Shown one piece after another: positions 47,620-62,266 of a DNA stretch of 64,000 nucleotides (within the stretch, counting starts at the first letter, position 1; every line of letters begins with the position of its first letter). The notes beneath the pieces were generated by a model. That model made no database searches. It worked only from the letters and a program-made list of their open reading frames with translations, and had not been told where the DNA came from. The position numbers were made by a program, and so were the translations under genes. The DNA is taken from contig JBGUOI010000202.1 of NCBI GenBank assembly GCA_045118075.1, forward strand, positions 7,741 through 71,740. Direction: 5' to 3'. The DNA comes from Porcincola sp. (lineage in GTDB: Bacteria; Bacillota; Clostridia; Lachnospirales; Lachnospiraceae).

Positions 47620-48099
47620 TCAATGGACCTGCTCGTCGAATTTGACCAGTTCGTCGTATTCCTTGCCGACGATGGCCGCCATCTCGGGATCCATATCCTC
47701 CATGTGGTTCATCTCCAGCCAGGCGTCGGTCATGACGCGGCCCATCTCGTGGCCGATCAGGAAGCCGCCCATGCAAAGGACGTTGGTGTTGTTGACCTGT
47801 TTGGCGCGGCGTGCCTGGTATACACTCTCGACCAGCGCGGCGTACACGCCTTTATGTTTGTTGCAGATGATGCTGACGCCCATGCCGGTCCCGCACAGGG
47901 CGATGCCTCTGTCGAACCCGCCGCTCTGGATGCCCTCGGAGACGCGGCAGGCCGCATCCTGGTAAAGCATCGGTGCATCCGGATTGACGTCCGTAACATC
48001 GTAGCCCTGTTTTCTCAAATGATCCCTGATGGCATTTTTAAGGTCAAAGCCGTAGCGGTCAGCCGCCATGATGATCTTTTTGACATTCTCGTTTCGCAT
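47620..48099 (-). CDS. rpiB: RpiB/LacA/LacB family sugar-phosphate isomerase
   Basis: 159 aa. MAADRYGFDLKNAIRDHLRKQGYDV and GIALCGTGMGVSIICNKHKGVYAA match the RpiB active-site region. Confidence 0.85.
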   Translation of the reverse strand: MRNENVKKIIMAADRYGFDLKNAIRDHLRKQGYDVTDVNPDAPMLYQDAACRVSEGIQSGGFDRGIALCGTGMGVSIICNKHKGVYAALVESVYQARRAKQVNNTNVLCMGGFLIGHEMGRVMTDAWLEMNHMEDMDPEMAAIVGKEYDELVKFDEQVH

Positions 48100-48120
48100 G
48101 AACTGTTACCTCTCCTTCTT

Positions 48121-49119
48121 TTATTTTCTCAGGTCAGCAAAGACCATGTCCAGGATGGCTGCGTTTCGAAGCGTCTCCTCCCGGCTCACCAGCGGCTCTT
48201 CCTGCCCGGTGATCACCCGGCCGAACTGCTCGATCTCGAGCATATAGTTCTGCGGACACATCACGCTGTAGACTGTCTCCACTTCGTCGAGCACTTCCAC
48301 GTTGTCGGTATGGCCTCCGGTCTTTACGCTGAACCTGGCTTCGTTGCGGCAGTTGAAGTTGCAGGGAACTTCAATGCGTCCCTTCTCTCCTACCACGCAG
48401 TAATATCCTCTTGCATAAGAATCCAGGGATGCGTAGGCAGTGGCCAGCGTTCCGTCCGCATATTCGAGGGCGAAGACCGCCGCGGTATCGACACCGCGCT
48501 CCGGATCCATCTTGGCAAGAGCTTTTGCCTTAACGGGTTCGGCCCCGATCAGGTAGCTGATGACGCTGATGTCATAGCAGGCCATGTCGTAGAGGGCCCC
48601 GCCGCCGAGGTTTTGCTGCATGCGGATATTTCCCATGTCTTCGAGCAGGTCGGTGAGGTGGGCTTCCAGGTATTTGATCTTTCCGATCGTTCCGGCATCG
48701 AGGATCTCCTTCACCTTCTGTACGAGCGGCGCCTGCCTGTAGGCGAATGCTTCCATCAGGTAAACGCCTTTTTCGCGGCAGTAGTCGAACATCTCGGCAG
48801 CTTCTTTGGCGTCGAGCGCCATCGGTTTTTCGCAGAGGATGTGTTTGCCGGCATCGGCCGCCTTCTTCACCCACTCGCAGTGCATGGAGTTGGGAAGCGG
48901 AATATAGACTGCCTGCACCATCTCATCGGCAAGCAGCTGCTCGTAGCTGCCGTAGGCTTTTTCGGCCCCGAAGGCTTCTTTAAATGCCTGCGCCTTTTCC
49001 GTGCCGCGGCTGGCCACTGCATAGAGCTGCGCGTTGGAAGAGGCCAGGAGGCCCGGTATCGTTCTTACTTTCGCTATGGCCGCGCATCCGAGCACGCCCC
49101 ATCTGATCTTTTCTGACAT
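48121..49119 (-). CDS. Gfo/Idh/MocA family NAD(P)-dependent oxidoreductase
   Basis: 332 aa. N-terminal Rossmann IRWGVLGCAAIA and the EKP motif HILCEKPMAL. Confidence 0.85.
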   Translation of the reverse strand: MSEKIRWGVLGCAAIAKVRTIPGLLASSNAQLYAVASRGTEKAQAFKEAFGAEKAYGSYEQLLADEMVQAVYIPLPNSMHCEWVKKAADAGKHILCEKPMALDAKEAAEMFDYCREKGVYLMEAFAYRQAPLVQKVKEILDAGTIGKIKYLEAHLTDLLEDMGNIRMQQNLGGGALYDMACYDISVISYLIGAEPVKAKALAKMDPERGVDTAAVFALEYADGTLATAYASLDSYARGYYCVVGEKGRIEVPCNFNCRNEARFSVKTGGHTDNVEVLDEVETVYSVMCPQNYMLEIEQFGRVITGQEEPLVSREETLRNAAILDMVFADLRK

Positions 49120-49138
49120 AGTATTACTCCTGTAAAGC

Positions 49139-50899
49139 TTAAAACGTCTGCATCTTGTCTTCCACGAATTCTCTCATTCCCTGGAAGATCAGGTAGACAC
49201 TGGTCGCACCGGCATCCTGGTGGCCGATCGCGCGCTCCATCAGGGATTTCGCGCGGCCGAATTTCGCCACATACTTCTTGGTGTTCTCCATTCCCTGGCG
49301 CGCGCCTTCCTCGGCCGCTTTCAGGATGGTGAGCAGGTCTTCGCCGCGGTGCGCTTCCATCGCCTCAAGGGCAGGTACGAGCGCATCGACCATGGTCTTG
49401 TCGCCGACCTGGGCTTTGCCGCGCTCCTGGATGGCCGCAAGGCTCTTCTTCTCCATATCGATCAGGTGATCGCCGGTGATGACCTTTTCGGAGTCCATTC
49501 CCTTTGCGCCTGCCAGATAGAGGCTGCCGAAGATCACGCCCGATGCGCCGCCCATGGACATGAGCATGGCTTTGCCGGCTTCTTCGAACATCTGGTATAC
49601 ATCGCTCTCATCGGCCATCTTGAGCAGTTTTTTCTTTGCTTTCTGCATGCCGCCGGCCATGCCGATGCCGTGGTCGCCGTCGCCGATGGCGCTGTCCACT
49701 TCGGTCAGGTAGGGCTTGTTGGCGATGATCTTGTCGGCGATGTAGAGCAGCATGTTGCGGGTATCTTCCGCGCTGAGCTCATCGAGGACGCCCTCTTTGC
49801 TCCTGGTGATCACAGCTGCCTCAACATCGTTCTCGTCGAACTCGGGCTCTTCTTCCTCCTCGGTATCCTCCGCGGAAGCCGTCTCGACTCCGACGCTTCC
49901 CTTTGCATAGTAGGGTGAATAGCACGGAGCATCCAGGTATTTCTTCAGCTCGTCATCAAGACGAAGGATCGTGATCGAGAAGCCGCCCATCTCCATGCAG
50001 GTGCAGTAGGCTTTAACTTCGGCATCGTAGACTTTCAGGCCGTCTTTGTGAAGAAGCTTCGCCAGCTCATAGTAGACAAGGTTCAGCTCGAGAAGCGGTG
50101 TGGAGCCGAGGCCGTTGATCATGACCGCGATCTCCTCGCCTTCCTTAAGCTCCATCTCTTTCTGGAGCTCGCTGTACATTCTCGCGACGATCTCATTGCA
50201 CGGAGCCATCTTGGTGCGCTCGATGCCGGGTTCGCCGTGCAGGCCCATGCCGTACTCAAGCTCATCATCGGCCAGCTCAAAGGTAGGCTTGTCATTGCCG
50301 GGAAGGGTTCCGGGAGCTGTCGCCACACCGATGGAACGGATATTGTCGCGCGCCTTTTCGGCGATCCTCACGACTTCGTCAAACTCAAGGCCTGCGTCGC
50401 AGGCGGCGCCTGCGCACTTGATCACATACACGTCGCCGGCGATGCCGCGCCTGTCGGTGATCCTCTCTTTCGGAGCGGAGACGCAGTCATCCCATACTCT
50501 CACATGGGCGGTCTTCATGCCGTCCGCCTGGCAGATCTCCTCAGCCATATCGAAGTTCAGATTGTCGCCCGCATAGCAGCCGTAGATGAACAGGACGCCC
50601 TTGCCCTGGTCAACAGACTTGGCAGCCTCGGCGATCAGTTCGGGATTGGGGGATGCGCAGATGTTGCCGCACGCTACCGCATCCGCCAGGCCGGCTCCGC
50701 AAAAGCCCGAGAAAAGGGGTTCATGGCCGCTGCCGCCGCCGATCACGAGGGCTACTTTGTCCTTGCGGGACTGGCGGTATTTGATGGCGTTGTACTCGCC
50801 GACTTTTTTATAATATTTCCGATACGCCGAAAGGAAGCCCGAGAGCATCTCTTCAACAACATTTGACGTATCTGCGTTCAGAATCTTTTTTACGGACAT
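49139..50899 (-). CDS. fused two-domain (DhaK-DhaL) ATP-dependent dihydroxyacetone kinase family ketose kinase
   Basis: 586 aa. Dak1 motifs are VIGGGSGHEPLFSGF and GNICASPNP. An acidic linker EDTEEEEEPEFDEND follows. The Dak2 motif is DSAIGDGDHGIGM. Confidence 0.85.
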   Translation of the reverse strand: MSVKKILNADTSNVVEEMLSGFLSAYRKYYKKVGEYNAIKYRQSRKDKVALVIGGGSGHEPLFSGFCGAGLADAVACGNICASPNPELIAEAAKSVDQGKGVLFIYGCYAGDNLNFDMAEEICQADGMKTAHVRVWDDCVSAPKERITDRRGIAGDVYVIKCAGAACDAGLEFDEVVRIAEKARDNIRSIGVATAPGTLPGNDKPTFELADDELEYGMGLHGEPGIERTKMAPCNEIVARMYSELQKEMELKEGEEIAVMINGLGSTPLLELNLVYYELAKLLHKDGLKVYDAEVKAYCTCMEMGGFSITILRLDDELKKYLDAPCYSPYYAKGSVGVETASAEDTEEEEEPEFDENDVEAAVITRSKEGVLDELSAEDTRNMLLYIADKIIANKPYLTEVDSAIGDGDHGIGMAGGMQKAKKKLLKMADESDVYQMFEEAGKAMLMSMGGASGVIFGSLYLAGAKGMDSEKVITGDHLIDMEKKSLAAIQERGKAQVGDKTMVDALVPALEAMEAHRGEDLLTILKAAEEGARQGMENTKKYVAKFGRAKSLMERAIGHQDAGATSVYLIFQGMREFVEDKMQTF

Positions 50900-50928
50900 G
50901 GTTTAATTCCTCCTTTACTGCTTGATGA

Positions 50929-51924
50929 TCAGCCGACCTTGATCTTCCTGGCCCTGCGTTCGGCAAGGATCGCAGAGATGGAACTGAAGGAGATGGCGAT
51001 GACGACGACAAATCCGCTGACGGCGGACTGCCAGTAAACATTGACGCCCAGAAGCACGATCATGTTCTGGATGATGCTGATGATGGCCGCACCGATCAGG
51101 GCGCCGGCCGGATTTCCGATGCCGCCCGTTAAGGCGATGCCGCCGATAACGGAGGAAGCGATGGAGTTCATGGGCCAGTTCTCACCGATGGCTGACTGCG
51201 AGGATCCGAGCCTTGCCACGTACAGGATGCCGGCCAGGGCGGAGATCAGACCTACCACCGAATAGAGCATCACACGGATCTTGTCCACGTTGATGCCGAG
51301 GATCTTCGCCGCCTCACGGCTGTTGCCGATGGCGTAGATATAGCGGCCGGTCTTTGTCTTCTTGACCAGGAACAGGACGACGATCAAAACGCCGATGCAG
51401 AAGATGAACGGCATCGGGATGGGACCGAGGTTGCCTTTGCCCAGGAAGTAGATCTCTTCCGGGATACCCGTGATGGCTTTACCTTTGGTCAGTACCAGGT
51501 TGATGCCGCCGTACACGCCCTGCATACCGATGGTCGCGACCATGGAGTTCAGGCGCAGCTTCGTGATGATCAGGCCGTTGATCGCGCCGAAGATCAGTCC
51601 GCAGATCAGAGCGATGGCCAGGGCTACCCACGGATTGATGTGATAATACACCATCATCATACCGGAAAGGATGCCGCACAGGGAGGCGATCTTACCGACG
51701 GAAAGATCGAGCTCGCCGATCAGCAGCAGCAGGGACTGGGCAATACCGATCATGCCGACGAAAGCCAGGTCGCGGATGACTGACTGCAGGTTGTACATAT
51801 CCAGGAAATACGGCGAGGAAATACAGGCGATGATGATCATGATCACCAGGACAGCGCCGATCGCCGTCATGTTGCTCTTTTTAAGCGCCGCTATAATAGG
51901 ATTGGTTTTTTTATTCTCGTTCAT
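50929..51924 (-). CDS. monosaccharide ABC transporter permease (RbsC/AraH type)
   Basis: 331 aa polytopic protein of the BPD_transp_2 type (GELDLSVGKIASL, IGGIALTGGIGNPAGALIGA). Confidence 0.85.
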   Translation of the reverse strand: MNENKKTNPIIAALKKSNMTAIGAVLVIMIIIACISSPYFLDMYNLQSVIRDLAFVGMIGIAQSLLLLIGELDLSVGKIASLCGILSGMMMVYYHINPWVALAIALICGLIFGAINGLIITKLRLNSMVATIGMQGVYGGINLVLTKGKAITGIPEEIYFLGKGNLGPIPMPFIFCIGVLIVVLFLVKKTKTGRYIYAIGNSREAAKILGINVDKIRVMLYSVVGLISALAGILYVARLGSSQSAIGENWPMNSIASSVIGGIALTGGIGNPAGALIGAAIISIIQNMIVLLGVNVYWQSAVSGFVVVIAISFSSISAILAERRARKIKVG

Positions 51925-51954: not shown

Positions 51955-53439
51955 TTAAGCGACACCGATGATCGCGCTCAGGATGTCTTCCTTGTCGGCC
52001 GTAGCCGGGAATTCGGCCACCTTCCGGCCGTCGTAGAGAGCGATGATGCGGTTGGCGCACTTGCGGATCTCATCCATCTCGGAAGAGATCAGAATGATGC
52101 CGATACCTTTTTCCTCTGCCAGTTCTTTCATCAGGCGGTAGATCTCCGCCTTTGTCCCTACGTCAATACCCTTTGTGGGCTCGTCGAAGACAAGGACTTT
52201 GGGATTGCAGCACATGGCTCTTCCGATGATCACCTTCTGCTGGTTGCCGCCGGAAAGGAACTGGATCTCTTTTTCGGCGTCCGGCGTCTTGATATCATAG
52301 GTGTTGATCACGCTTTGAGCCAGTTCCTCTTCTTTTTTCCTGGAGATTCCGGTGGGGGTCTTCAAATCGTCGAGGACCGCCATGGATATGTTCTCCCTGA
52401 TCGAGAGCACCGGCAGGATGCCTTGTTTTTTACGCTCCTCCGGCAGGTAGATATAACCATGCTGCACGGAGAAGGTGGGATCTCCCAGTTTCCAGTTTTC
52501 GCCGTCGATCCGTACCGATCCCTTGTAAACCGGCAGGTATCCGAAGATCGCCTGCATCAGTTCGCTGCGGCCGGCGCCGACAAGTCCCGAAAAGCCCAGG
52601 ATCTCGCCTCTTTTGAGGTTGAAGCTGACGTCTGTAAACATCTCGCCTGTCAGGCCTTCGACTTCCATCAGCACTTCGTCGGAGACTTTCTCGGAACAGA
52701 ACACCTGGTTCTGATCCACTTCACGGCCGGTCATCTGGCGGATGACCCACGGAATGTCGATCCCTTCCAGTTCGTGGTAGGCGACTTTCTTTCCGTTTCT
52801 GAAGACCGTGATCACGTCACCCAGGGCAAAGATCTCTTCCAGTTTGTGGGAGATAAAGATGACTGCTTTGTTCTGCGCTTTGATCTGCCTGACGATGTCA
52901 AACAGGATCTGTGTATCTTTCGTTGTTAAAGAGGTGGTCGGCTCGTCCAGCATCAGCACCTCATAATCTTCATGCACGGTAGCTCTGGCGATCTGCAGCA
53001 GCTGCTGTGAGGATATCGAGATATCCTTGACCAGATCGTCGGGCTTGACAGGGATCTGGAATTTCTCAAGCAGCGGACGGGCTGCCTCCTCCAGAGCCTT
53101 CTGGTTGACCAATCCTTTGAATCCTGATTTTTCGTAAGGAATAAACAGATTCTCGGCTACCGACATGTAGCCGAACAGGTCGATCTCCTGCGGCACATAG
53201 GCCACTTTATCAAAAAGTTCTTTATTCTTCAGGGCATCCTGGCCATCGATCATGACCGAGCCCTCTTCCGGCGAATACACACCGGTCAGACACTTGATCA
53301 GCGTACTTTTTCCGGCACCATTTTCCCCGATGATGCAGTGGATCTGTCCCGGCTCAAAGGAAACATCTACGGAATCCAACGCAACAACGCCGGGGAATAC
53401 CTTCGTGATCCCGGTTGCCTCCAATACTTTCATGAGCAT
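51955..53439 (-). CDS. monosaccharide ABC transporter ATPase with two intact nucleotide-binding domains (RbsA type)
   Basis: 494 aa. NBD1 has GENGAGKST and VLMLDEPT. NBD2 has GLVGAGRSE, LSGGNQQK and VLVFDEPT. Confidence 0.9.
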   Translation of the reverse strand: MLMKVLEATGITKVFPGVVALDSVDVSFEPGQIHCIIGENGAGKSTLIKCLTGVYSPEEGSVMIDGQDALKNKELFDKVAYVPQEIDLFGYMSVAENLFIPYEKSGFKGLVNQKALEEAARPLLEKFQIPVKPDDLVKDISISSQQLLQIARATVHEDYEVLMLDEPTTSLTTKDTQILFDIVRQIKAQNKAVIFISHKLEEIFALGDVITVFRNGKKVAYHELEGIDIPWVIRQMTGREVDQNQVFCSEKVSDEVLMEVEGLTGEMFTDVSFNLKRGEILGFSGLVGAGRSELMQAIFGYLPVYKGSVRIDGENWKLGDPTFSVQHGYIYLPEERKKQGILPVLSIRENISMAVLDDLKTPTGISRKKEEELAQSVINTYDIKTPDAEKEIQFLSGGNQQKVIIGRAMCCNPKVLVFDEPTKGIDVGTKAEIYRLMKELAEEKGIGIILISSEMDEIRKCANRIIALYDGRKVAEFPATADKEDILSAIIGVA

Positions 53440-53584
53440 TACTCCTGTCCTGATTTTGATACGACATTAATTGTCATAAACGGAAAATCCGGAGACGCAT
53501 GACCCGAATTCTTCGGTCACGCGCCCCCGGATCCTCAAATCACTTTATGGTTGGTCTTTTGTGATATCCAGGTATTGATCTGAA

Positions 53585-54532
53585 TTATTCGCTGACCAGA
53601 GCGATCCACTCGTCGATGTTGGTCTCGTCGATGTAAGCGATACCGGTATCAACTTTAGCCGGGATCTCAACGCCCAGAGAAGCCTGCCACATCATCAGAA
53701 CAGCCATGGAACCCTGCATCTGCGGGATGGTGGAAGAAGTAGCCGTGATGGTGCCGCTCTTTACATACTCAAGGATCTCGATCAGGTTGTCCATGGAGAC
53801 GAATTTGACCTGTCCTGCCTTGCCGGCTTCTTCGATGGCTGCTGCCACACCGGAACCGCAAGCGTCGCAGTTCAGATATCCGGCCAGATCCGGATTAGCT
53901 GCCAGAACAGCTGCTGCCTGCTGCTGAGCTGTCTCGATGTTGTCGTTGTCGATACCGCCTTCGATGACCTCGATGTCCGGATAAGCTTCCAGAGCTTTCA
54001 GATGAGCTTCATATCTCTCGGCATGGTTCGGAGCGGACGGGAAGCCCTGCATAACGGCAACTTTGCCTTTTCCGCCAAGGATCTCGGCAAGTTTGTCAGC
54101 GGCCAGCTTAGCCTGCTCGGAGAAGTCATTTCCTACGCTGGTCAGGCCTGAGCCTTCGGGGCTGGGAGCATCGAACAGGATTACGGGAATGCCCTGTGCC
54201 TGGATCTCTTCGATAACAGCCTTGCTGCCTTCATAGTCAACGGGGTCAAGAGCGATGCCGTCGGGATGAGTGGCTGCTGCCTGCTCCAGTGTGGAGTTCT
54301 GCTCAACAACGTCTGCGGTCTGCGGTGCACGATAGTCGATCTTTACATCAACACCGAGCTGCTCGGAAAGAACCTCAGCCTGCTTAACAGCACCTTTGTT
54401 TACCTCATCGAACCATGCATGCACGCATTTGGGAACGATAACGAAGGTCATGTCTTCCGCAGCCTGTGCGCTGACAGCGCCGCCGATCATCGTTGCAGCA
54501 ACTACAGCGATAGCCAACAGTCTTTTCTTCAT
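53585..54532 (-). CDS. periplasmic-binding-protein type I sugar-binding lipoprotein/secreted protein (RbsB type)
   Basis: Start trimmed to ATG 54532 after AAAGGAGGATG (MKKRLLAIAVVAATMIGGAVSAQA). The sequence looks like PBP type 1. Confidence 0.85.
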   Translation of the reverse strand: MKKRLLAIAVVAATMIGGAVSAQAAEDMTFVIVPKCVHAWFDEVNKGAVKQAEVLSEQLGVDVKIDYRAPQTADVVEQNSTLEQAAATHPDGIALDPVDYEGSKAVIEEIQAQGIPVILFDAPSPEGSGLTSVGNDFSEQAKLAADKLAEILGGKGKVAVMQGFPSAPNHAERYEAHLKALEAYPDIEVIEGGIDNDNIETAQQQAAAVLAANPDLAGYLNCDACGSGVAAAIEEAGKAGQVKFVSMDNLIEILEYVKSGTITATSSTIPQMQGSMAVLMMWQASLGVEIPAKVDTGIAYIDETNIDEWIALVSE

Positions 54533-54599
54533 AGTAACATCCTCCTTTTTTTGTATGACGGGACCGGCCGCACCGGTCCGCACCCATAATGGTAATTAA

Positions 54600-54628
54600 A
54601 TTATAAGGTGCCTGCACGCCGGTTCCAA
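54600..54628 (-). promoter_or_regulatory. sigma-A type promoter candidate for the rbsB-like operon
   Basis: On the minus strand: TTGGAA (54628-54623), a 17-nt spacer, and a perfect TATAAT (54605-54600). It sits about 68 nt upstream of the start codon and directly downstream of the two-component system genes. Confidence 0.4.
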
Positions 54629-54660
54629 GGTGAGCCAATTAAGAAAAAGGGGGAGAATCT

Positions 54661-56103
54661 TTAGAAGCGTATGATCTCGTCCGAAATGTCCTCCATGTAT
54701 TCATCCCGGGCCCGAAGTACGATGACGGCCGTGCCGGAGCTGGCAAAACGCAGGATATAGGACCGGACCATGGAGACGCCGTACAGGTCGCAGCGCTCGA
54801 ACGGATCCATCATGACCAGCACCTTCGGATTATACAAAAGCCACCGCTCCATCATCACGGCAATGCGGTCGTTTACATCCCTCCGCGCCATCAGGCCGTT
54901 CTGCTCTTCGGGAAGCGTCGGCGACGCATCCACGGCGTTGATGAGGCTGCCGGCCTCCAGCAGGTAATCGGCCCCCGAGATCTTCCCAAGGGACGGCAAA
55001 ATCAGATTTTCCGAGACACTCATGTTCCCGAACAGTTCGTCGCGGCTTCCCAGTTTCATAACGGACACTACCTTCTCGCGCACAAACTGCTCATATTCTC
55101 CTCTCCCGAGGCGGCGCTCGCCGATCACGCAGTAGACATCTTCATCCGGGTCCCGCCCGGAGATATTATTGAACAGGCGGGTGCGCTTTTCTTCATTGAT
55201 CACCAGCAAAGTCGTAATGGTGCCCGGGGAAAAATTCAGATCGACCGTCTTGGCTTCTCCCGAATCGGACAGCACGCCGATCCCTCTTACGCGATAAGCC
55301 GGCTGCCGGTACTCATCCCCGGGGGCCGTCTCATTCTGCCCGCGGATATATTCCTCGAGGCTTTTTTGCGCATCGCTCTTTGTCCCCAGCAGGTAGCGTT
55401 CCATCTCAGCGCGGCCGGTCAGCGCCGAGGCGCGGCATTTGCGGATGATGCGCCCGTCGCGGAAAAAGACCAGCTGGTCGCAGAGCAGCCGGATGACTTC
55501 GTTTGAATGGGAATTGACGATCACGGTGAAATGATACTTTCCGGCCGCCTCGCGCATACGCTCTGCAAAGGAATGCTGTTCCCGGGCTGTCAGGTCCTCA
55601 AGATCATCCTCGATGACCAGCACACCTGCGCCTTTAAGGCAGGTCTTGGCCAGGTCCGCCATCCGCTTTTCGTATGCAGACAGGTTCTGGAGCGGGGTTT
55701 CCGCCTGGAGATCCGGGCAGATCTTATCCAGCAGTTCCTGCACTTCCCTGTGCATTTTGCGCCGGTTTCTTCCCATCAGGAGCCATCCCGCCTGTACGAG
55801 TGCGATATACTCGGCCACGGTCCAGTCCCTGACCCGGAAGTTGTCCGGATGCATCCGGCAGACCATCTCCGTAAGCTTTCTCGCGCTGCGGATCCTCTCC
55901 CCGCGGATGGTCAGCTTCATCTCCTCAAAGTCGGGTGTTTCCCGTCCCGTCAGGAGCCGCACCAGGTGATCTTTTCCCGATGAAGACAATCCTAAAAAGC
56001 CGGTGCACTCCCCCTCTGAAAGGATCAGGCTGATCCTCCGGAGGCGCATCCCGGACTGGTCGGTCCCTGTATAATCATTGATGCGGAGGGCTTCTTTTCT
56101 CAT
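54661..56103 (-). CDS. RbsA-like double ABC ATPase paralogue with degenerate catalytic motifs (pseudo-ATPase)
   Basis: 480 aa. NBD1 has GLSSSGKD instead of GxxGxGK[ST], LSAYE instead of LSGGQ, and VLVIEDD. NBD2 has no glycine-rich P-loop (LLVINEEKRT), no signature motif, and VLVMMDPF with no catalytic Glu. Confidence 0.75.
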   Translation of the reverse strand: MRKEALRINDYTGTDQSGMRLRRISLILSEGECTGFLGLSSSGKDHLVRLLTGRETPDFEEMKLTIRGERIRSARKLTEMVCRMHPDNFRVRDWTVAEYIALVQAGWLLMGRNRRKMHREVQELLDKICPDLQAETPLQNLSAYEKRMADLAKTCLKGAGVLVIEDDLEDLTAREQHSFAERMREAAGKYHFTVIVNSHSNEVIRLLCDQLVFFRDGRIIRKCRASALTGRAEMERYLLGTKSDAQKSLEEYIRGQNETAPGDEYRQPAYRVRGIGVLSDSGEAKTVDLNFSPGTITTLLVINEEKRTRLFNNISGRDPDEDVYCVIGERRLGRGEYEQFVREKVVSVMKLGSRDELFGNMSVSENLILPSLGKISGADYLLEAGSLINAVDASPTLPEEQNGLMARRDVNDRIAVMMERWLLYNPKVLVMMDPFERCDLYGVSMVRSYILRFASSGTAVIVLRARDEYMEDISDEIIRF

Positions 56104-56109
56104 CGCTTC

Positions 56110-57126
56110 CTACTCGTCTTCGCTGCGCTTGTGGTCAGCCGGGATCATGATCTCGACATCCGTTCCCTGGCCGAGCGTACTGTAGACGTTCACTCCGTAC
56201 TCGTCCCCGAACAGCAGCTGGATACGCCGGTTTATGTTGGGCAGCGCGATTCCCGTCCGGTGTGTGCCTCCCGCCGGCTCGTCCAGATTCCGGTCACGGG
56301 AGTGGATCCGCTCATTAAGTGCTTCCAGTTCATCCTCCGGGATGCCTATGCCGTTGTCCGATATCATCAGGATCAGGTTCTTATCCGTCACCATCACTTC
56401 AATAGTCACCACGCCGCCTTCATCCAGATCCTCCATGCCGTGGAAGATGGCATTCTCCACCACCGGTTGGATGATCAACCGCGGAATCAGGTAGTCGTAG
56501 GCTTCCTCATCCGCCTCATCGACGATGATCTCGAGCGAGAACCGGTTGTTGAACCGGTATTGCTGGATAAGCATGTAATTGCGGATGTTGTCCAGTTCTT
56601 CGCGCAGCGTTACCAGATTTCCCTTGCGGCTGATGCTGTAGCGGAAGAATGCGCCGAGCGCCTCCGTCATGACGGCGATCTGCTCGTTGCCGTCGATCAG
56701 GGCCTGCCCGCGGATGGTCTCGAGCGTGTTGTACAGAAAATGCGGGTTGATCTGGCTCTGCAGCGCGGTCAGCTCGGTCTGTTTATCGAAAATCTCTGCC
56801 GTTGTCTGCCTTGTCAGCTCATCCGCATACAGGCGGACGACCCTCTCGAGAGGCTCCAGATATGGTTCCTCCCTGACGGCTTCCTCGAGTTTCTCTTCGC
56901 TTGGATTCTCATCGATGGCGAGCTGCGACGCGATCTGTTCCATCCGCCTTAAGGGGCGGACTGCAAAAAAATAAGCGGCTGCCAGAAGTACTGCCTCTCC
57001 CAGGGCAAGGATAACAGCCCCGGCTATATGCCGGGGCAGATTCCCGTTTTGCAGCAGGAAAACGCTCAGCAGGCAGACCGCGATCTGCGCGGTGATCAGT
57101 ATTTTCACCCGGTCCGATAATCTCAT
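56110..57126 (-). CDS. YesM/LytS-type sensor histidine kinase lacking an extracytoplasmic domain
   Basis: 338 aa. Two N-terminal TM helices are joined by an 8-residue loop (QNGNLPRH). His_kinase H-box LQSQINPHFLYNTLETI and HATPase N-box IIQPVVENAIFHG. Confidence 0.85.
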   Translation of the reverse strand: MRLSDRVKILITAQIAVCLLSVFLLQNGNLPRHIAGAVILALGEAVLLAAAYFFAVRPLRRMEQIASQLAIDENPSEEKLEEAVREEPYLEPLERVVRLYADELTRQTTAEIFDKQTELTALQSQINPHFLYNTLETIRGQALIDGNEQIAVMTEALGAFFRYSISRKGNLVTLREELDNIRNYMLIQQYRFNNRFSLEIIVDEADEEAYDYLIPRLIIQPVVENAIFHGMEDLDEGGVVTIEVMVTDKNLILMISDNGIGIPEDELEALNERIHSRDRNLDEPAGGTHRTGIALPNINRRIQLLFGDEYGVNVYSTLGQGTDVEIMIPADHKRSEDE

Positions 57127-57142
57127 GACTGGCTCCTTAAGG

Positions 57143-58753
57143 TCACGAATGCATCCTGCGGTACAGCGCGGGTTTAATGCCCACGACCTTTGTAAAAGTC
57201 TGGCTGAAGTACCGGCTGTCCTTGTATCCCACCTGTTCGCCGATGGCCGCCACGGTCTCGTTCGTGCCCCGCAGCAGCTCCTTCGCTTTCTCCATGCGCA
57301 CCCAGATCAGGTACTGGCTGAAGTTCATGTCCGTCTCTTTCTTGAAAAGGACGCTGAAATAGACGGCATTCAGTCCAACGATATCCGCCAGGTCCTCCAG
57401 CACGATCTTTTCGGCATAGTGTTCATCCACAAAAGCTTTGGCCAGTCTCACCGGCCTTGCCGATTCGCTCTCTGCAGCCTCGCGGCTCATCTCCAGGTAA
57501 CGCCTCAGTTCGCCGGTCAGGTATTTTTTCAGCCTGGTCAGTGAATTGCAGTTCCGGCAGTGACGGATGACTTTTTTCCGGTGCCTTCCCAGTTCATCTT
57601 CCTCACCGCCGACACAGTCAAAGAACAGTTCGACGATCTCCGATGCGATCTCATAGATCCCGCCCTGGTCCGCTGTCTCCAGCGAGGCATAGTCGTCAAA
57701 GAGTTTCCCGATCAGGGCATTCATCTGGTCAGCGCTGTAACTTTCAATATAGCCGGTCAGTTCCTCCGCCGCTCCTTTTACCGGGCTCACATAGGGCGTC
57801 AGTTCACCCAGCGAATCCCGGTAGATCAATCGGCCGGTCCCCATCCGGATCCTGTACATCGCTGCCTGGTAAGCCTCGCGGATGGAGAAACGGATCTGGC
57901 CGAATTCCGTCTTTTCCCCGCCGATCCCGATCGTGACTTCATAATCTTCGTACCGCATCAGGTAAGATGTGATCTCGGAGAGGATCGTCCCGATGCATCC
58001 CCGGATCTCCCTGGAGACGGAAGCCTCATAGTTGAACAGGCAGTAGATGTTCAGCCATTCCTTCTCACAGCAAAGCACTTCCTCCGCGAAATTGCCCAGG
58101 CTCTGTTCGACGATCGCGGATATCTTCTCGACGATCGCCAGCTCCCTCCGGCGGCTCGAATTTTCGGGGTCAGAGCAGTCGAGCTTGATGTCGATACCCC
58201 TGAAGCATCCGCCTGTCAGTTCCACCGGAGCGTCATCGGCCGCGATGGCCGCGTCCGGATCGTCTCCTTCCTGTTCGATAATGTTCAAAAGAAAATCCCG
58301 CTTGATCAGCTTCCGGCCCTGGTCCGCCACCTGGCGCATCTTCTGACGCTCAAGCCGGTCAAGTTCTCCCTTTTTCAGCGTCCCGACAACTTTATGCAGC
58401 GTCTCGTTGAGTTCTTCCTCATTGATGGGCTTGAGCAGATAGCCCTCCACCTCATACTGAAGGGCGCGGTGCGCATACTCGAATTCCTTGTAGCCGCTGA
58501 GCACGATAAAGCGGATGTCCGGAAAGAGCTTCCTGGACATCTCGATCAGGTCCAGCCCGCTGATCTTGGGCATGCGTATATCCGTGATCACAATATCGGG
58601 CTTATCCGTGCAGATCGTGTCATAGGCGATCTGTCCGTTGAGGGCAACCCCCTGGCATTCGAGTCCGAGCTCGTCCCAGTGGATCAGTTTCCTGATCAGC
58701 TCGCCTATTCTCGCCTCATCTTCCACGATCAGCAGTCGATGCTTTTTTTCCAT
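57143..58753 (-). CDS. YesN-type response regulator (REC plus AraC-type HTH)
   Basis: 536 aa. REC domain LLIVEDE...PDIVITDIRMPKISGLDLI. C-terminal HTH regions VLEDLADIVGLNAVYFSVLFKK and AIGEQVGYKDSRYFSQTFTKVVG. Confidence 0.9.
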   Translation of the reverse strand: MEKKHRLLIVEDEARIGELIRKLIHWDELGLECQGVALNGQIAYDTICTDKPDIVITDIRMPKISGLDLIEMSRKLFPDIRFIVLSGYKEFEYAHRALQYEVEGYLLKPINEEELNETLHKVVGTLKKGELDRLERQKMRQVADQGRKLIKRDFLLNIIEQEGDDPDAAIAADDAPVELTGGCFRGIDIKLDCSDPENSSRRRELAIVEKISAIVEQSLGNFAEEVLCCEKEWLNIYCLFNYEASVSREIRGCIGTILSEITSYLMRYEDYEVTIGIGGEKTEFGQIRFSIREAYQAAMYRIRMGTGRLIYRDSLGELTPYVSPVKGAAEELTGYIESYSADQMNALIGKLFDDYASLETADQGGIYEIASEIVELFFDCVGGEEDELGRHRKKVIRHCRNCNSLTRLKKYLTGELRRYLEMSREAAESESARPVRLAKAFVDEHYAEKIVLEDLADIVGLNAVYFSVLFKKETDMNFSQYLIWVRMEKAKELLRGTNETVAAIGEQVGYKDSRYFSQTFTKVVGIKPALYRRMHS

Positions 58754-58759
58754 TTAAGT

Positions 58760-60109
58760 TTACTCCTGTTGAACATCGTCCACTTTCATATTCTTAAGTT
58801 CCGACGCCGCCATGGGCACCGTCAGCGCGAATGCGCACACATCCGCCGCGGCCTGCGTGATCTCGACTCCGAAAAGCCCGAACAGCCTCGGCAGTATCAA
58901 AATCAGCGGAATAAAGAAGATTCCGTTCCTGGCCGCCGAAGTAATGCTCGCTTTCACCCCTTTGCCGATGGACTGCAGCATCATGTTGGAGGGAACCGTA
59001 GTCCCCATCAGCGGCAGCGCCGCCGCCTGCCAGCGAAGTGCCGTCGTTCCCACCGCAATGACGTCCGGATCTTTCCTGAAAAGCCCGATCAGCTGCGGCG
59101 CAAAAACCATGCACAGCGCACATACCGCGGTCAGTACAATGGTCCCGTACTTCACGCAGAAGAAATACCCTTCTCTCACCCGCCTTTTCAGGCCGGCGCC
59201 GTAATTGTACGAGCACATGGGCTGATACCCCTGCCCGAACCCGATCAGGGCGGAAACGGTCATCATCAGGATGCGCGTCACGATGGACATGCCCGCGATC
59301 GCCGCATCGCCTCCCAGGCTTCCCGCCGCCGTATTGAGCAGCAGGGTCGCGACCGCCGCCATCCCCTGTCGGAACAGCGAAGGCGCGCCGCCGTTTAAGA
59401 TTCCCAGAAGGTATGTCCGGTTAAACCGCACGTTCTTTATATTCAGACGGATATTCTCGCCTCTGGAGCTGCCGATTAGCAGCACGATAAAGCTGGTGAT
59501 CTGCCCCATGACAGTGGCGACCGCCGCGCCGGCCACGCCCATGTGAAGCCCCAGAATCAGCAGCGGGTCGAGGAAAAGGTTCATGACCGCCCCGCACATC
59601 AGGCCGACCATCGCGTAGATGGCGCTGCCCTGGAAACGCAGCTGGTTGTTCACTACAAACTGGCCGCACATGAACGGAGCTCCAACCAGGATGATCCGCA
59701 TGTAAGTCATCGTGTCCTCAAGCGTGGTCGGTGTTGCTCCCACCCACAGCGCGATCCGCCTCAGGTTAAGGATGCCTCCGACCGTCAGGCAAAGCCCGAT
59801 CAGCAGCGCGACCGCAAATCCCGTGGAGGCCATCTCATTCGCTTCCTTCTCCTTCCCCGCGCCGAGCGCCCTGGAAAGAAAGTTTCCCGAACCGTGGCCG
59901 CAGAAGAACCCGAAAGCCTGGATGATCGCCATCACCGAAAACACCAGGCCTACCGCCGCGGTCGCCTGGGTCGAGATGCGTCCGACAAAAAAAGTGTCCG
60001 CCGTATTGTAGATACCGGTCACGAGCATGCTGATGATCGTCGGGATCGCCAGATGAATGATCAGCTCCGGAACCGGAGTCTGCGTCATGAGTTCATGTCT
60101 GTTTTTCAT
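58760..60109 (-). CDS. MATE family efflux transporter
   Basis: Start trimmed to ATG 60109 (MKNRHELMTQTPVPELIIHLAIPTIISMLVTGIYNTADTFFVG). Twelve-TM MatE-type sequence. Confidence 0.85.
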   Translation of the reverse strand: MKNRHELMTQTPVPELIIHLAIPTIISMLVTGIYNTADTFFVGRISTQATAAVGLVFSVMAIIQAFGFFCGHGSGNFLSRALGAGKEKEANEMASTGFAVALLIGLCLTVGGILNLRRIALWVGATPTTLEDTMTYMRIILVGAPFMCGQFVVNNQLRFQGSAIYAMVGLMCGAVMNLFLDPLLILGLHMGVAGAAVATVMGQITSFIVLLIGSSRGENIRLNIKNVRFNRTYLLGILNGGAPSLFRQGMAAVATLLLNTAAGSLGGDAAIAGMSIVTRILMMTVSALIGFGQGYQPMCSYNYGAGLKRRVREGYFFCVKYGTIVLTAVCALCMVFAPQLIGLFRKDPDVIAVGTTALRWQAAALPLMGTTVPSNMMLQSIGKGVKASITSAARNGIFFIPLILILPRLFGLFGVEITQAAADVCAFALTVPMAASELKNMKVDDVQQE

Positions 60110-60358
60110 AATGCTCCCACAATCCTTTATTCTACAAAGTATTGTAGCATATCCGGGAGGGAAATGCACCGGCCGGCGGTTTCCCACTTTTGCCTTTTCA
60201 TGCGTACCTAGGACCAGAACAAACTTGCTTTCCCTACGCCCGTTTCCCGTTTTCGTCCCCGCAGGCGGGCGTAGAGATAAGATGAAAAGGGACGATCCTA
60301 TGTCATTCTATGATGACCGGACCGTCCGAAGTCATGTGCAGCTTGAAAAACATAAATG

Positions 60359-60434
60359 ACAAATACAAAAGGATCTTAAGCCTATGCCGCAGCGTTTTCA
60401 AAAGCGGCAAATAGCTTAAGATCCTTGTATTTGT
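60359..60434. terminator. 76-nt hairpin downstream of the S41-like gene, possible terminator
   Basis: The arms are ACAAATACAAAAGGATCTTAAGC (60359-60381) and GCTTAAGATCCTTGTATTTGT (60414-60434), with an inner GCCGC/GCGGC pair. T-rich tracts follow on both strands but are not immediately adjacent. Confidence 0.35.
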
Positions 60435-60482
60435 TTTATGTGTTTATGTCAAAATGACTCTAACGGCCGTCCCCTCTCATCT

Positions 60483-62266
60483 TCAGGCCGCGTTCTCCAT
60501 CTCCTCTTCTCCCGCAAACCAGCTGTTCATCATTTCATCGAGAGCGGCCTCATCGAAGTAGGCTGAGAAGGAAGGAAGATCCGCATCCATGCCGGCCAGG
60601 TTTGAAAGCAGATTTCCGATCGAGTTTTCCTTCGGCTCGATCGGCATATCGACGGCGCAGCCGCCTTCTACATCAACTCCCTGTGAATCGATCAGCTGCC
60701 ATTGAGCGGAGGACATCACATAGGATAATCCGAGCGCGTCGCTTCCCATCTGGATGCAGCATGAACCGCCGGTGGTCGGCTCACCGATGACTGCTGCGCC
60801 GCCTTCCCGGGCGACGATCGGGAACAGGTTGCCGCAGGAGAAAGCATGACGCGTCGTCAGGATACCGTAATTGAAATCATAACGGGCTTCTTTGTCCTTT
60901 TCGTCAAATACGCCGTTGAAATCCGAATCCGTCTCAAAAATGACCGTCATCTTCTGTCCCGTCACTTTGTTGATACCGTACAGCCGGTCCTGGCCGGTGG
61001 TCAGGGCGAGTATCGCCATCAGCACGTCGGAACTTCCGCCGGCGTTGCAGCTTAAGTCGAAGATCACATTTTTGATCCTGGGGTTTTCCGAAGCCTTTTT
61101 TAATCCGGCAGCCACAATGCCCACGCAGTCCGAAGGCAGGTCGCCTCCGTTCTCATAGTACTGCTTCCAGGCTTCTTCATCCGGCATAAATCCATCCAGT
61201 CGGATGATTGCCGTGCTGCCGCTTTCAATGTAATCTTTGCTTCCCCATTTCAGCGTACGCTGTATTTTAATACCCTCGTACAGCGTCATCTTTAAATCGA
61301 CATTGCTTTCAAGCAGGCTGCTTGTATATGCCGGTGTCAGTTCGCCGATCAATGCTGTCCCCTCACCGAGTGCAGCCGGATAGGACGCCATCGTTCCGGC
61401 ACTGGTAAATACGGTATGACCGTCGCCCAGGTAGACCATGAACAATCTCATCATAGCCTTTAAGTAATCCGCCAGTCTCGGGGACAGCAGTCCTTCTTTG
61501 ATGGCTTCTCCTTCTGTTCCAAGACCGGTGATCGCCGCATCAAGGCCCTTTTCAAGCAGGGCTTCATCCAGTTTAGCCACGCCTGGATGCCCGAAGAAAT
61601 GATCAAAATTGAAGCAGAGCCCGCCATAGCTGTATCGGATGACGTCTTCCGGTCTGTCTCCTCCGGTCAGGAGGTTCTGAAACAGTTCCGACATGTAAAA
61701 GCCTTCTATAGGTGCCATCTGAAGGTCTACCCTCTGTGAATAAAGGTTTTCGCCGTTATAGACCATATAGGCGGTCGAAATATCTGTCATCATATTTGAC
61801 ATGATAAAAACCGGCAGGTAGATGTCCTCCGAATCCGCATAGACTTTGATGCCGCATCCCCTTCGATGGGTGTCTGCGGATAAGCAAAAGCGATCCAGTC
61901 CGGCACCGTGATCACGCCCGATTCGGGATCGCAAAGAAGCTGAGCGCCGACTTCATTTTCAAGCGCGAAGGTTCCGTCTTCATTTTCATGAAGAGTCAGT
62001 GTCTGATTCTTCATGAACCGGCAGTATTCCTTCATCCCGATATACGGGACATTCGGCGCTTCCTCATAGAAGCGCAGCGCAAGCTCACCGGCCTTTTCTC
62101 CTTCTGAAAAGACGGTTGTCATCTTTTCCGTACAGCCGGTCTGCGCAGATTCGATCTGCGTTTCCGCAGCACCGGTTTCTGTTTCTGTTACCGTCTCCGC
62201 TGCTGCAGGCACGGCAAGCATGCAAACAACGGCTGCTGCGGCTGTCAGTTTCTTTAAGTTCATCAT
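60483..62266 (-). pseudogene. S41-like (C-terminal processing type) peptidase with signal peptide, split by a frameshift
   Basis: ORFs 61790-62299 (signal peptide MMNLKKLTAAAAVVCMLAVPAAA) and 60483-61934 (VIFDLSCNAGGSSDVLMAIL, VIGEPTTGGS) overlap in different frames. They join if one base is added to the C4 run at 61858-61861. Confidence 0.55.

Follow-up and report, generated by a model that had tools for sequence, protein, structure and literature searches.

How does a YesM/YesN-type two-component system perceive a sugar when its histidine kinase has no sensor domain outside the membrane? The question is posed by three consecutive genes in a 64,000-nucleotide stretch of a Porcincola sp. genome (a Lachnospiraceae bacterium from gut or rumen; contig JBGUOI010000202.1, the whole analysed stretch being called the window), which encode a YesN-type response regulator (RR), a short histidine kinase (HK) and a protein that we term PSA, a paralogue of the tandem ATPases of CUT2 sugar importers of the ATP-binding cassette (ABC) type. 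The three proteins plausibly form a three-component sugar-sensing module controlling the adjacent uptake and catabolic operon, and the view that PSA is an old offshoot of a CUT2 (RbsA-like) motor, ATPase-dead and kept as a signalling subunit, is well supported by sequence comparison. The three open reading frames (ORFs), their order and their strand are exactly as given in an earlier reading of the bare sequence, the original prediction:

57143-58753, minus strand: YesN-type response regulator, 536 aa, with receiver domain (REC), middle domain and AraC-type helix-turn-helix (HTH).
56110-57126, minus strand: short YesM/LytS-type histidine kinase, 338 aa, with two transmembrane (TM) helices, a minimal outside turn, a helical linker, His_kinase (His129) and HATPase_c.
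54661-56103, minus strand: PSA, a paralogue of CUT2 sugar ABC ATPases with tandem nucleotide-binding domains (NBDs), 480 aa, both ATP sites degenerate.

The regulator matches the Pfam families Response_reg (4.9e-22), HTH_18 (4.1e-19) and HTH_AraC (4.6e-17). The ATP sites of PSA were compared with those of the ATPase encoded nearby, in a direct alignment of the two proteins and in family alignments, and all the motifs quoted in the original prediction, for the neighbour and for the paralogue, were found:

51955-53439, minus strand: CUT2 tandem ATPase, 494 aa, catalytic motifs all intact (AraG 450 bits; ABC_tran 5.6e-52, two domains).
Walker A of NBD1: GENGAGKST in the neighbour, GLSSSGKD in PSA.
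Q-loop of NBD1: YVPQE in the neighbour, no Gln in PSA.
Signature of NBD1: ISISSQQ in the neighbour, LSAYEKR in PSA.
Walker B of NBD1: VLMLDEPT in the neighbour, VLVIEDDL in PSA.
Walker A of NBD2: GLVGAGRSE in the neighbour, VINEEKRTR in PSA, with no P-loop glycine.
Signature of NBD2: LSGGNQQK in the neighbour, none in PSA.
Walker B of NBD2: VLVFDEPT in the neighbour, VLVMMDPF in PSA.

The NCBIfam AraG, RbsA and XylG models align PSA from end to end (for AraG, residues 20-478 against model positions 22-470), and this alignment with the RbsA-type families bears out the loss of motifs, the best score being 88.3 bits against a curated equivalog cut-off of 689 and against 450 bits for the neighbouring ATPase; the Pfam search of PSA gave a weak ABC_tran match, in the first half only. 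NBD1 retains the G-x4-G-K skeleton, but Asp stands where a Ser/Thr should follow the Lys, E-D-E replaces the canonical D-E of Walker B, and the Gln of the Q-loop and the Gly/Gln of the signature are missing. In NBD2 the Walker B Asp has become Met, and the 'catalytic Glu' position holds Asp here and Glu in most family members. The claim of two degenerate ATP sites thus stands, and these two retained features temper it. In an ABC dimer each ATP site is assembled from the Walker motifs of one NBD and the signature of the other, and because of this pairing neither composite site of PSA is complete. Judged as a CUT2 ATPase, PSA has the tandem-NBD architecture, scores below the cut-off and lacks the catalytic motif set. 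The AlphaFold2 (AF2) model built with the family alignment consists of two NBD-like alpha/beta domains (predicted local distance difference test, pLDDT, 79), and Foldseek matches it to tandem ABC ATPases with a probability of 1.00, the best full-length superpositions being with fused OppD/DppD subunits of mycobacterial importers; no CUT2 transporter complex, sought as an interface template, was among the PDB matches listed. The segments after the Q-loop are among the best-conserved stretches in both halves of PSA (conservation 0.86 and 0.79, versus 0.53 overall). In ABC importers, as seen in MalFGK2-type structures, these segments line the groove that receives the coupling helix of the permease.

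The kinase has an intact and highly conserved catalytic core (PF06580 1.1e-27, PF02518 5.4e-13, no other Pfam domain), in which the phospho-acceptor motif INPHFLYNT and the N and G boxes are invariant across the family alignment. Hydropathy places TM1 at residues 6-27 and TM2 at 33-56, and the AF2 model (pLDDT 82.6) has helices at 3-26, 30-71, 77-86 and 88-144, with a turn of 3 residues after the first; the second continues into the cytoplasm and the long last one bears the phospho-acceptor His129. The outside turn is therefore 3-8 residues long, depending on the prediction, and the two methods agree with the earlier description of a two-helix kinase devoid of an extracytoplasmic domain. No HAMP, Cache or other sensor domain was detected by Pfam, and the AF2 model has no extracellular domain. 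Seven PF06580 kinases are encoded in the genome, five of them in frames of 503-732 aa, and the short ones are this kinase and one on contig C32 only. Set beside the YesM/YesN class, the pair has the PF06580 plus HATPase_c kinase and the REC plus AraC-HTH regulator, and lacks the large extracellular domain and HAMP.

PSA is a family rather than an isolated oddity. A word-indexed search of 5.8 billion proteins retrieved about 67 PSA clusters at 90% identity, with identity to the window protein falling from 99% to 28% and scores from 1057 to 198 bits, and a sharp gap separates these from the next matches, genuine sugar ATPases that score no more than 87 bits. When 1.84 billion representatives were scanned exhaustively with HMMER, 70 PSA clusters (50% identity) were retrieved at E <= 1e-30. 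The members are full length and without stops, their alignment has 33 invariant columns, and the family is defined by the motifs GLxxSGK, WTVAEYI, hhhhEDEF, MSxGENLxLPSLxKIS and ERWYIYNPKVLV..EPF..CD.YG, which the window PSA matches. The host genome has one copy, its remaining matches being ordinary ATPases (at most 117 bits). PSA was found in 10 of 301 genomes from the bacterial family of the host (one per genus), always as a single copy, and a same-genus relative is without it, so that PSA is an accessory trait.

A profile scan of one genome per species yielded 49 PSA loci, from Dorea, Muricomes, Extibacter, Blautia, Bariatricus, Coprococcus comes, Faecalicatena, Lachnoanaerobaculum, other Bacillota and one Spirochaetia-labelled metagenome-assembled genome (MAG). 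The co-occurrence survey that the original prediction had suggested gave a uniform answer: in 49 of 49 loci PSA stands behind a YesN-like regulator of 492-571 aa and a short kinase of 303-366 aa (an apparent 393-aa kinase in locus L043 is an overcall of the ORF start), and all these kinases have two adjacent N-terminal TM helices. The HK and PSA genes overlap or lie at most 30 nt apart in 43 of 48 loci, as do the RR and HK genes in 44 of 47. Genes for a sugar-binding protein (SBP), an ATPase, a permease, a DAK kinase and a Gfo oxidoreductase follow downstream in most loci, and a CUT2 SBP-ATPase-permease set adjoins the PSA module wherever the flank allows, the permease of PSA-family loci lying within 10 kb. 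The adjacent ATPase is canonical in all loci, with motifs near-invariant across 39 of them, and since an intact ATPase always adjoins, PSA never substitutes for the motor. The motif pattern, the gene order and the promoter are far beyond chance and recur in dozens of diverged genomes. On one MAG contig (L004:6617-8116) the PSA gene alone is inverted between RR-HK and SBP-ATPase-permease; no long inverted repeats flank it there, and we treat the inversion as an assembly artefact or an isolated local rearrangement.

The evolutionary history of PSA ties it to the signalling genes. In a maximum-likelihood tree of 105 sequences, 45 free PSAs and six fused ones (described below) form one clade and 51 real ATPases a separate one, each with a value of 100 in the Shimodaira-Hasegawa-like approximate likelihood ratio test (SH-aLRT), and the distant HK-linked proteins of L047-L049 branch between the two. 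The neighbouring ATPases have branches several times shorter than those of PSA. Mean pairwise divergence, computed from 34 complete loci, was 0.54 for PSA, 0.43 for HK, 0.42 for RR, 0.26 for SBP, 0.23 for ATPase and 0.21 for permease, and PSA distances correlated with those of RR (r = 0.93) and HK (r = 0.87) more closely than with those of the transporter parts (0.61-0.73); with the ATPase controlled, the partial correlations were 0.86 for RR, 0.70 for HK and 0.16 for the permease. Because its distances track RR and HK better than the transporter parts, PSA belongs evolutionarily to the signalling module and not to the transporter, a result that says nothing about its contact partner. Synteny and co-variation thus agree with the earlier assignment of the paralogue to the kinase/regulator pair. 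One complete RR-HK-PSA-SBP-ATPase-permease-DAK locus, with the same operator, lies on the 3.9-Mb chromosome of the Spirochaetia-labelled MAG (L023, OY764342.2), and its sequence nests among Bacillota in the tree, which suggests horizontal transfer.

What has been conserved in PSA can be read from four HK-linked lineages, which have lost different residues of NBD1:

Intermediates L047-L049, NBD1: canonical Walker A GLSG(S/C)GKT; L047 retains D-E too.
Fused lineage, NBD1: Walker A Lys lost (GLxDSGxx); Q-loop Gln in 5/6 (RISQE); Walker B D-E in 5/6.
Free PSA, NBD1: GK retained, Gln lost, Walker B E-D-E.
PSA2, NBD1: entire P-loop gone.

NBD2 is dead in all four, with Pro-Phe after its Walker B versus Pro-Thr in real ATPases. 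Since the losses in NBD1 differ and NBD2 is dead throughout, neither hydrolysis nor even nucleotide binding is the conserved function, and the motif comparison indicates that it is the fold, not the nucleotide chemistry, that has been kept. On these and the preceding grounds PSA is very probably a non-hydrolysing signalling subunit of the YesM/YesN pair that controls the adjacent operon.

The fused lineage came to light with P0152 (811 aa), in which a PSA-family protein and an RbsC-type (BPD_transp_2) membrane domain form one chain. Six full-length PSA-permease fusions (805-813 aa), 47-55% identical and from independent assemblies, were found, together with P0167, a shorter form of NBD2 plus permease. 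The fusions stand among genes for an RR (531-536 aa), a two-TM HK (335-344 aa), the fusion itself, an SBP, a live ATPase, a permease and a Lactamase_B protein, an order seen in all four full-length contexts with upstream flank, while L059 ends upstream of the kinase. The EAA-like loop of the fused membrane domain reads AVGSN..E.RRSGLPVN.VK, versus YA(I/M)GGN.EAA.L.G(I/V)N in the neighbouring permease. The fused domain shares 24-26% identity with that neighbour, and two fused domains compared with each other are 44% identical where their neighbour permeases are 76%. The fused domain is an old, fast-evolving paralogue, and the signalling module of this lineage has a pseudo-transporter of its own. 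The fusions are the strongest available sign, a hint read from domain architecture, that PSA acts on a CUT2 membrane domain, and with their retained coupling loop they favour the permease over the kinase as its docking site. Among the best 150 representatives no kinase-PSA fusion was found. Two long matches, P0190 and P0196, have no bearing on this, as both are catalytically intact CUT2 ATPases, one form (854 aa) beginning with a permease and the other (829 aa) including a binding-protein domain; they also show that domain fusions are not rare in the CUT2 transporter family.

A second module of the same build was found on host contig C32 (L060:1078-9039, minus strand), with genes for a live ATPase (525 aa), a permease, an SBP, a YesN regulator (529 aa), a YesM kinase (342 aa) and P0344, and is flanked by DUF3798, GlcNAc 2-epimerase and PNP_UDP_1 genes. 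P0344 is a 507-aa dead tandem NBD with no Pfam match and no P-loop, which hhalign matches to 457 columns of the PSA profile (probability 99.3%, E = 1e-20) and which scores 103 bits against XylG, for which the cut-off is 699. The family built from it, PSA2, comprises about 57 clusters, set apart from real ATPases by the same score gap as PSA, and three diverged members stand behind a YesN regulator and a 347-361-aa kinase with a 4-nt overlap.

The output of the module is suggested by what lies immediately downstream of PSA, across a 128-nt spacer between the PSA and binding-protein genes. Besides the ATPase given above, the features are:

54623-54668, minus strand: putative operator of two direct repeats, TTCTAAAG-N-TCTCCCCC and TTCTTAAT-N4-TCACCTTGGAA.
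54600-54628, minus strand: sigma-70-type promoter, -35 TTGGAA at 54628-54623, 17-nt spacer, -10 TATAAT at 54605-54600.
53585-54532, minus strand: sugar-binding protein (Peripla_BP_4; Pfam PF13407 3.6e-62), first gene of the operon.
50929-51924, minus strand: RbsC-type permease (BPD_transp_2; Pfam PF02653 2.2e-40), 331 aa, EAA-like loop GRYIYAIGNSREAAKILGINV.
47620-50899, minus strand: catabolic genes of the same operon, assigned by Pfam and also located behind the transporter in most related loci.
49139-50899, minus strand: fused Dak1-Dak2 kinase (Pfam).
48121-49119, minus strand: Gfo/Idh/MocA oxidoreductase (Pfam).
47620-48099, minus strand: RpiB-type isomerase (Pfam).

The promoter-like element pointed out in the original prediction is the top sigma-70-type match in the 7.1 kb from 53400 to 60500 (10/12). 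The first repeat of the operator overlaps the PSA stop codon and the second overlaps the -35 element. AraC-family regulators typically activate from a site that overlaps the -35. The consensus cTTAAaAT-N-cTCaCAC-ttA-TCTAAAT-N4-TCaCATTGGAa, followed by 17 nt and TATAAT, is present in almost all of the roughly 38 free-PSA loci with a PSA-SBP spacer (missing in L024) and in three of the four fusion-type loci; the 17-nt spacer and TATAAT are kept in nearly all loci. In the 3.47-Mb genome the operator-plus-promoter pattern occurs once, with one 1-mismatch match elsewhere and none for the reversed control. In two loci an insert of 1.0-1.8 kb lies between the PSA and binding-protein genes (L016:11422-13214, L022:11410-12459), and the operator and promoter still stand beside the binding-protein gene. 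The 5' untranslated region (UTR) between the -10 element and the ribosome-binding site (RBS) of the binding-protein gene has a perfect 7-bp stem (54561-54579, minus strand; GGACCGG, loop TGCGG, CCGGTCC) with no T-run after it; in many related loci this position is occupied by a conserved CCATTCCAA-like motif.

The binding protein probably starts at ATG 54532, behind an AGGAGG RBS at 54546-54541. Its signal peptide (54443-54532; MKKRLLAIAVVAATMIGGAVSAQAAED) has no lipobox cysteine, which is unusual for a Gram-positive-type ABC binding protein, and the protein may be secreted or anchored through an uncleaved signal. The permease, whose EAA-like loops are GRYIYAIGNSREAAKILGI, is a candidate docking site for the real ATPase and, by the reasoning set out below, for PSA. 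Most related loci have two extra genes between the permease and the DAK kinase (e.g. L010:15132-16638), whose products, judged by eye, are isomerase-like with a TIM barrel (about 295 aa) and SIS/PHI-like (about 187 aa); both genes are missing from the window and from its closest relative, L001, where the DAK gene follows the permease directly (window 50899-50929). The DAK, Gfo and RpiB genes point to tetritols, small ketoses and similar polyols as candidate inducers. Upstream, the RR stop codon is followed by AAGGAG and the HK start, and the HK stop TAG by GAAGCG and the PSA start (6 nt). The start ATG of the regulator lies 6 nt past the stop of a MATE-family efflux gene (58760-60187), with the regulator's RBS inside the 3' end of that gene. 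The only other promoter-like site in the scanned region (60401-60373) precedes the MATE gene, and RR, HK and PSA may for that reason be co-transcribed with it.

We propose the following mechanism, in which the protein contacts, the direction of signalling and the binding of the regulator to the operator are what we infer. PSA would replace the live ATPase beneath a dimer of RbsC-type permeases, which would be that of the transporter or, in the fused lineage, one private to the module, and the sensor-less kinase, held by its two-helix hairpin, would join this PSA-permease complex. When a sugar-loaded binding protein docks on the permease from outside, a change in the coupling loop would be relayed through PSA to the kinase, which would phosphorylate the YesN regulator. 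The regulator would then bind the direct repeats overlapping the -35 element (54668-54623) and activate the promoter (54628-54600), and the resulting induction of binding protein, live ATPase, permease and catabolic enzymes would constitute positive feedback. Taken as a whole, a three-component module with such a motor-swapped receptor is the best explanation we have and, on balance, slightly more likely than not; to its central step, the action of PSA through docking on the CUT2 permease, we give an even chance on the sequence evidence. A wider formulation, that the same binding protein and permease form two assemblies in a class of Clostridia YesM/YesN switches including at least four lineages, one with the live ATPase for import and one with the dead paralogue and the kinase as a non-cycling transmembrane receptor, is more tentative and falls somewhat short of even.

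The alternative that presses hardest on this proposal makes PSA a cytoplasmic input domain supplied in trans, which binds the kinase directly (e.g. at its conserved P-L-x-x-F juxtamembrane segment or at the core of dimerization and histidine-phosphotransfer plus catalytic domains, DHp/CA) and answers to an intracellular cue, whether nucleotide, sugar phosphate or imported sugar, independently of the permease. It would account for the co-variation of PSA being strongest with RR and HK and for the translational coupling of the HK and PSA genes in most loci, and the G-x4-GK and acidic E-D-E of free PSA could still bind a phosphate ligand. Such binding cannot be the general function, however, because the fused lineage has lost the P-loop Lys and PSA2 the whole P-loop; the natural fusions, moreover, in the lineages seen here, link PSA with a permease domain whose coupling loop is intact and not with a kinase, and a CUT2 permease lies within reach in every PSA-family locus with enough flank. 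We regard direct docking on the kinase as the less likely reading, though the main rival, and acknowledge several observations that count against a permease-borne receptor. Free-PSA loci encode a single permease, that of the transporter, which PSA and the live ATPase would need to use in common; free PSA has lost its Q-loop Gln; the TM helices of the kinase are poorly conserved (0.28-0.31) and offer no obvious conserved intramembrane interface; and when RR and ATPase are both controlled, the partial correlation of PSA is 0.29 with the permease and 0.14 with HK, so that the permease is not singled out. Mirror-tree analysis with RR controlled likewise gives partial correlations of 0.04-0.29, which do not separate kinase from permease as the partner of PSA. 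Finally, the PSA2 locus L063 has no CUT2 permease within 7 kb, which speaks against obligatory docking on a local permease and keeps the kinase in play as the docking site.

The remaining readings take PSA out of signalling altogether. As a brake or decoy, PSA would displace the live ATPase from the permease by competition and so slow uptake at the post-translational level, and its being linked to the two-component genes would be a mere regulatory convenience; the retained tandem-NBD fold and segments facing the transmembrane domain (TMD), as well as the affinity for a CUT2 TMD to which the permease fusions point, are compatible with this. Yet the gene for PSA stands among the sensor genes, ahead of the regulated promoter, and not with the transporter, and PSA always accompanies a kinase without an input domain of its own, and co-evolves with RR and HK rather than with the transporter, which makes a brake improbable. 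Still further from the evidence is an ordinary, divergent working ATPase of this or a second transporter. Full-length homology to CUT2 ATPases and the G-x4-GK of NBD1 would fit it, but site 1 has neither the NBD2 signature, nor a Ser/Thr after the Lys, nor a canonical D-E, site 2 is without P-loop or Walker B Asp, an intact ATPase always stands beside PSA, sister lineages lack the P-loop Lys or the entire P-loop, and PSA evolves more than twice as fast as the real ATPase; we consider this very improbable. That PSA might be a functionless, decaying duplicate would explain the lost catalytic motifs and the fast evolution, and is nonetheless barely credible given intact frames in about 70 clusters (50% identity) and 49 loci from many genera, 33 invariant residues, a fixed position, translational coupling and an old monophyletic clade. 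Both the decaying pseudogene and the working ATPase were rejected on conservation and motifs.

The finding offers a testable answer for the subset of YesM/YesN systems with a sensor-less kinase: a recycled, ATPase-dead motor as the missing input. Gut and rumen Lachnospiraceae have many YesM/YesN sugar switches, and cultured carriers of PSA exist (Coprococcus comes, Blautia caecimuris, Extibacter muris, Muricomes intestini, Faecalicatena contorta, Dorea species and Lachnoanaerobaculum orale), so that the question is directly testable. If the proposal is right, a class of YesM/YesN sugar switches in Lachnospiraceae and other Clostridia, with at least four lineages (PSA, PSA2, the permease-fused form and the P-loop-retaining intermediates), would use an ABC permease, borrowed or (in the fused lineage) private, to sense sugar outside the cell, and the fused and intermediate forms would be snapshots of a duplicated transporter turning into a receptor. 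This would be a new way to build a receptor from ABC-importer parts and would extend transporter-coupled sensing from the antimicrobial-peptide Bce modules to nutrient importers; more than 100 protein clusters that at present bear the label 'sugar ABC transporter ATP-binding protein' or 'hypothetical' would need re-annotation, and compact, orthogonal sugar-inducible switches with a defined operator would become available for anaerobe engineering.

The original prediction had also called the system one of an undescribed type and likened it to the Bce modules. In keeping with the first of these points, we found no description of a dead ABC ATPase partnered with a kinase in the open-access literature searched, the coverage of which is limited, so that absence is unproven; nothing was found there either on the downstream catabolic cluster in Lachnospiraceae. 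In the Bce modules (BceAB-BceRS of Bacillus subtilis; cryo-EM of BceAB-S by George and Orlando 2023), a sensor-less kinase senses the cycling, or 'flux', of a live transporter (PMC10314905; reviewed in PMC7828314). The likeness lies in a kinase that has no extracellular sensor and relies on ABC-transporter parts as its receptor, and in a regulator that induces the transporter operon with positive feedback. An intramembrane-type kinase encoded with ABC-transporter parts is present here, and a BceB-type permease with a working BceA is not. Bce modules have a live, cycling BceA and a BceB whose large extracellular domain dispenses with a binding protein, sense antimicrobial peptides, and use another kinase/regulator family than the YesM/YesN type seen here, where a CUT2 importer takes up sugar by means of a binding protein and a separate, ATPase-dead paralogue is dedicated to signalling. 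The analogy therefore holds for the architecture and not for the mechanism, because flux sensing needs a cycling ATPase, which PSA cannot be.

Closer in their signalling proteins are XylFII-LytS-YesN of Clostridium beijerinckii, a three-component xylose sensor with an extracellular binding protein (PMC8050422, citing Li et al. 2017), and the YesM/YesN-related (LytS/AraC-type) CuaD-type systems of Ruminiclostridium cellulolyticum (PMC10384115, PMC5663094). These systems share with our module the kinase (PF06580 plus HATPase_c) and regulator families, an ABC-derived third protein as input and a sugar ABC operon as output, and differ in that an extracellular binding protein docks on a periplasmic four-helix-bundle domain of the kinase. 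In the window, by comparison with XylFII-LytS-YesN as described there, the outside turn has 3-8 residues, the third component is a cytoplasmic dead ATPase, the sole binding-protein gene heads the transporter operon and the kinase has no periplasmic domain. The multi-component sensor GraXSR-VraFG of Staphylococcus aureus (PMC4314665) likewise combines a kinase of the intramembrane type with an accessory protein in the cytosol and an ABC transporter. It differs in having a live VraFG ATPase and a cationic-peptide signal. To our knowledge, GraX is not ABC-related. The Pst-PhoU-PhoR and MalK-MalT systems relay the state of an importer ATPase to a regulator, or to a kinase without a periplasmic sensor, and do so with the transporter's own working ATPase (plus PhoU for Pst) and no dead paralogue. 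PSA itself resembles the CUT2 tandem ATPases RbsA, AraG, XylG and MglA in full-length homology and two-NBD fold, and departs from them in its dead ATP sites, its separate old clade and its being encoded with a kinase rather than with a permease. Collectively, the module is apparently an unpublished, widespread variant of accessory- or transporter-coupled two-component sensing.

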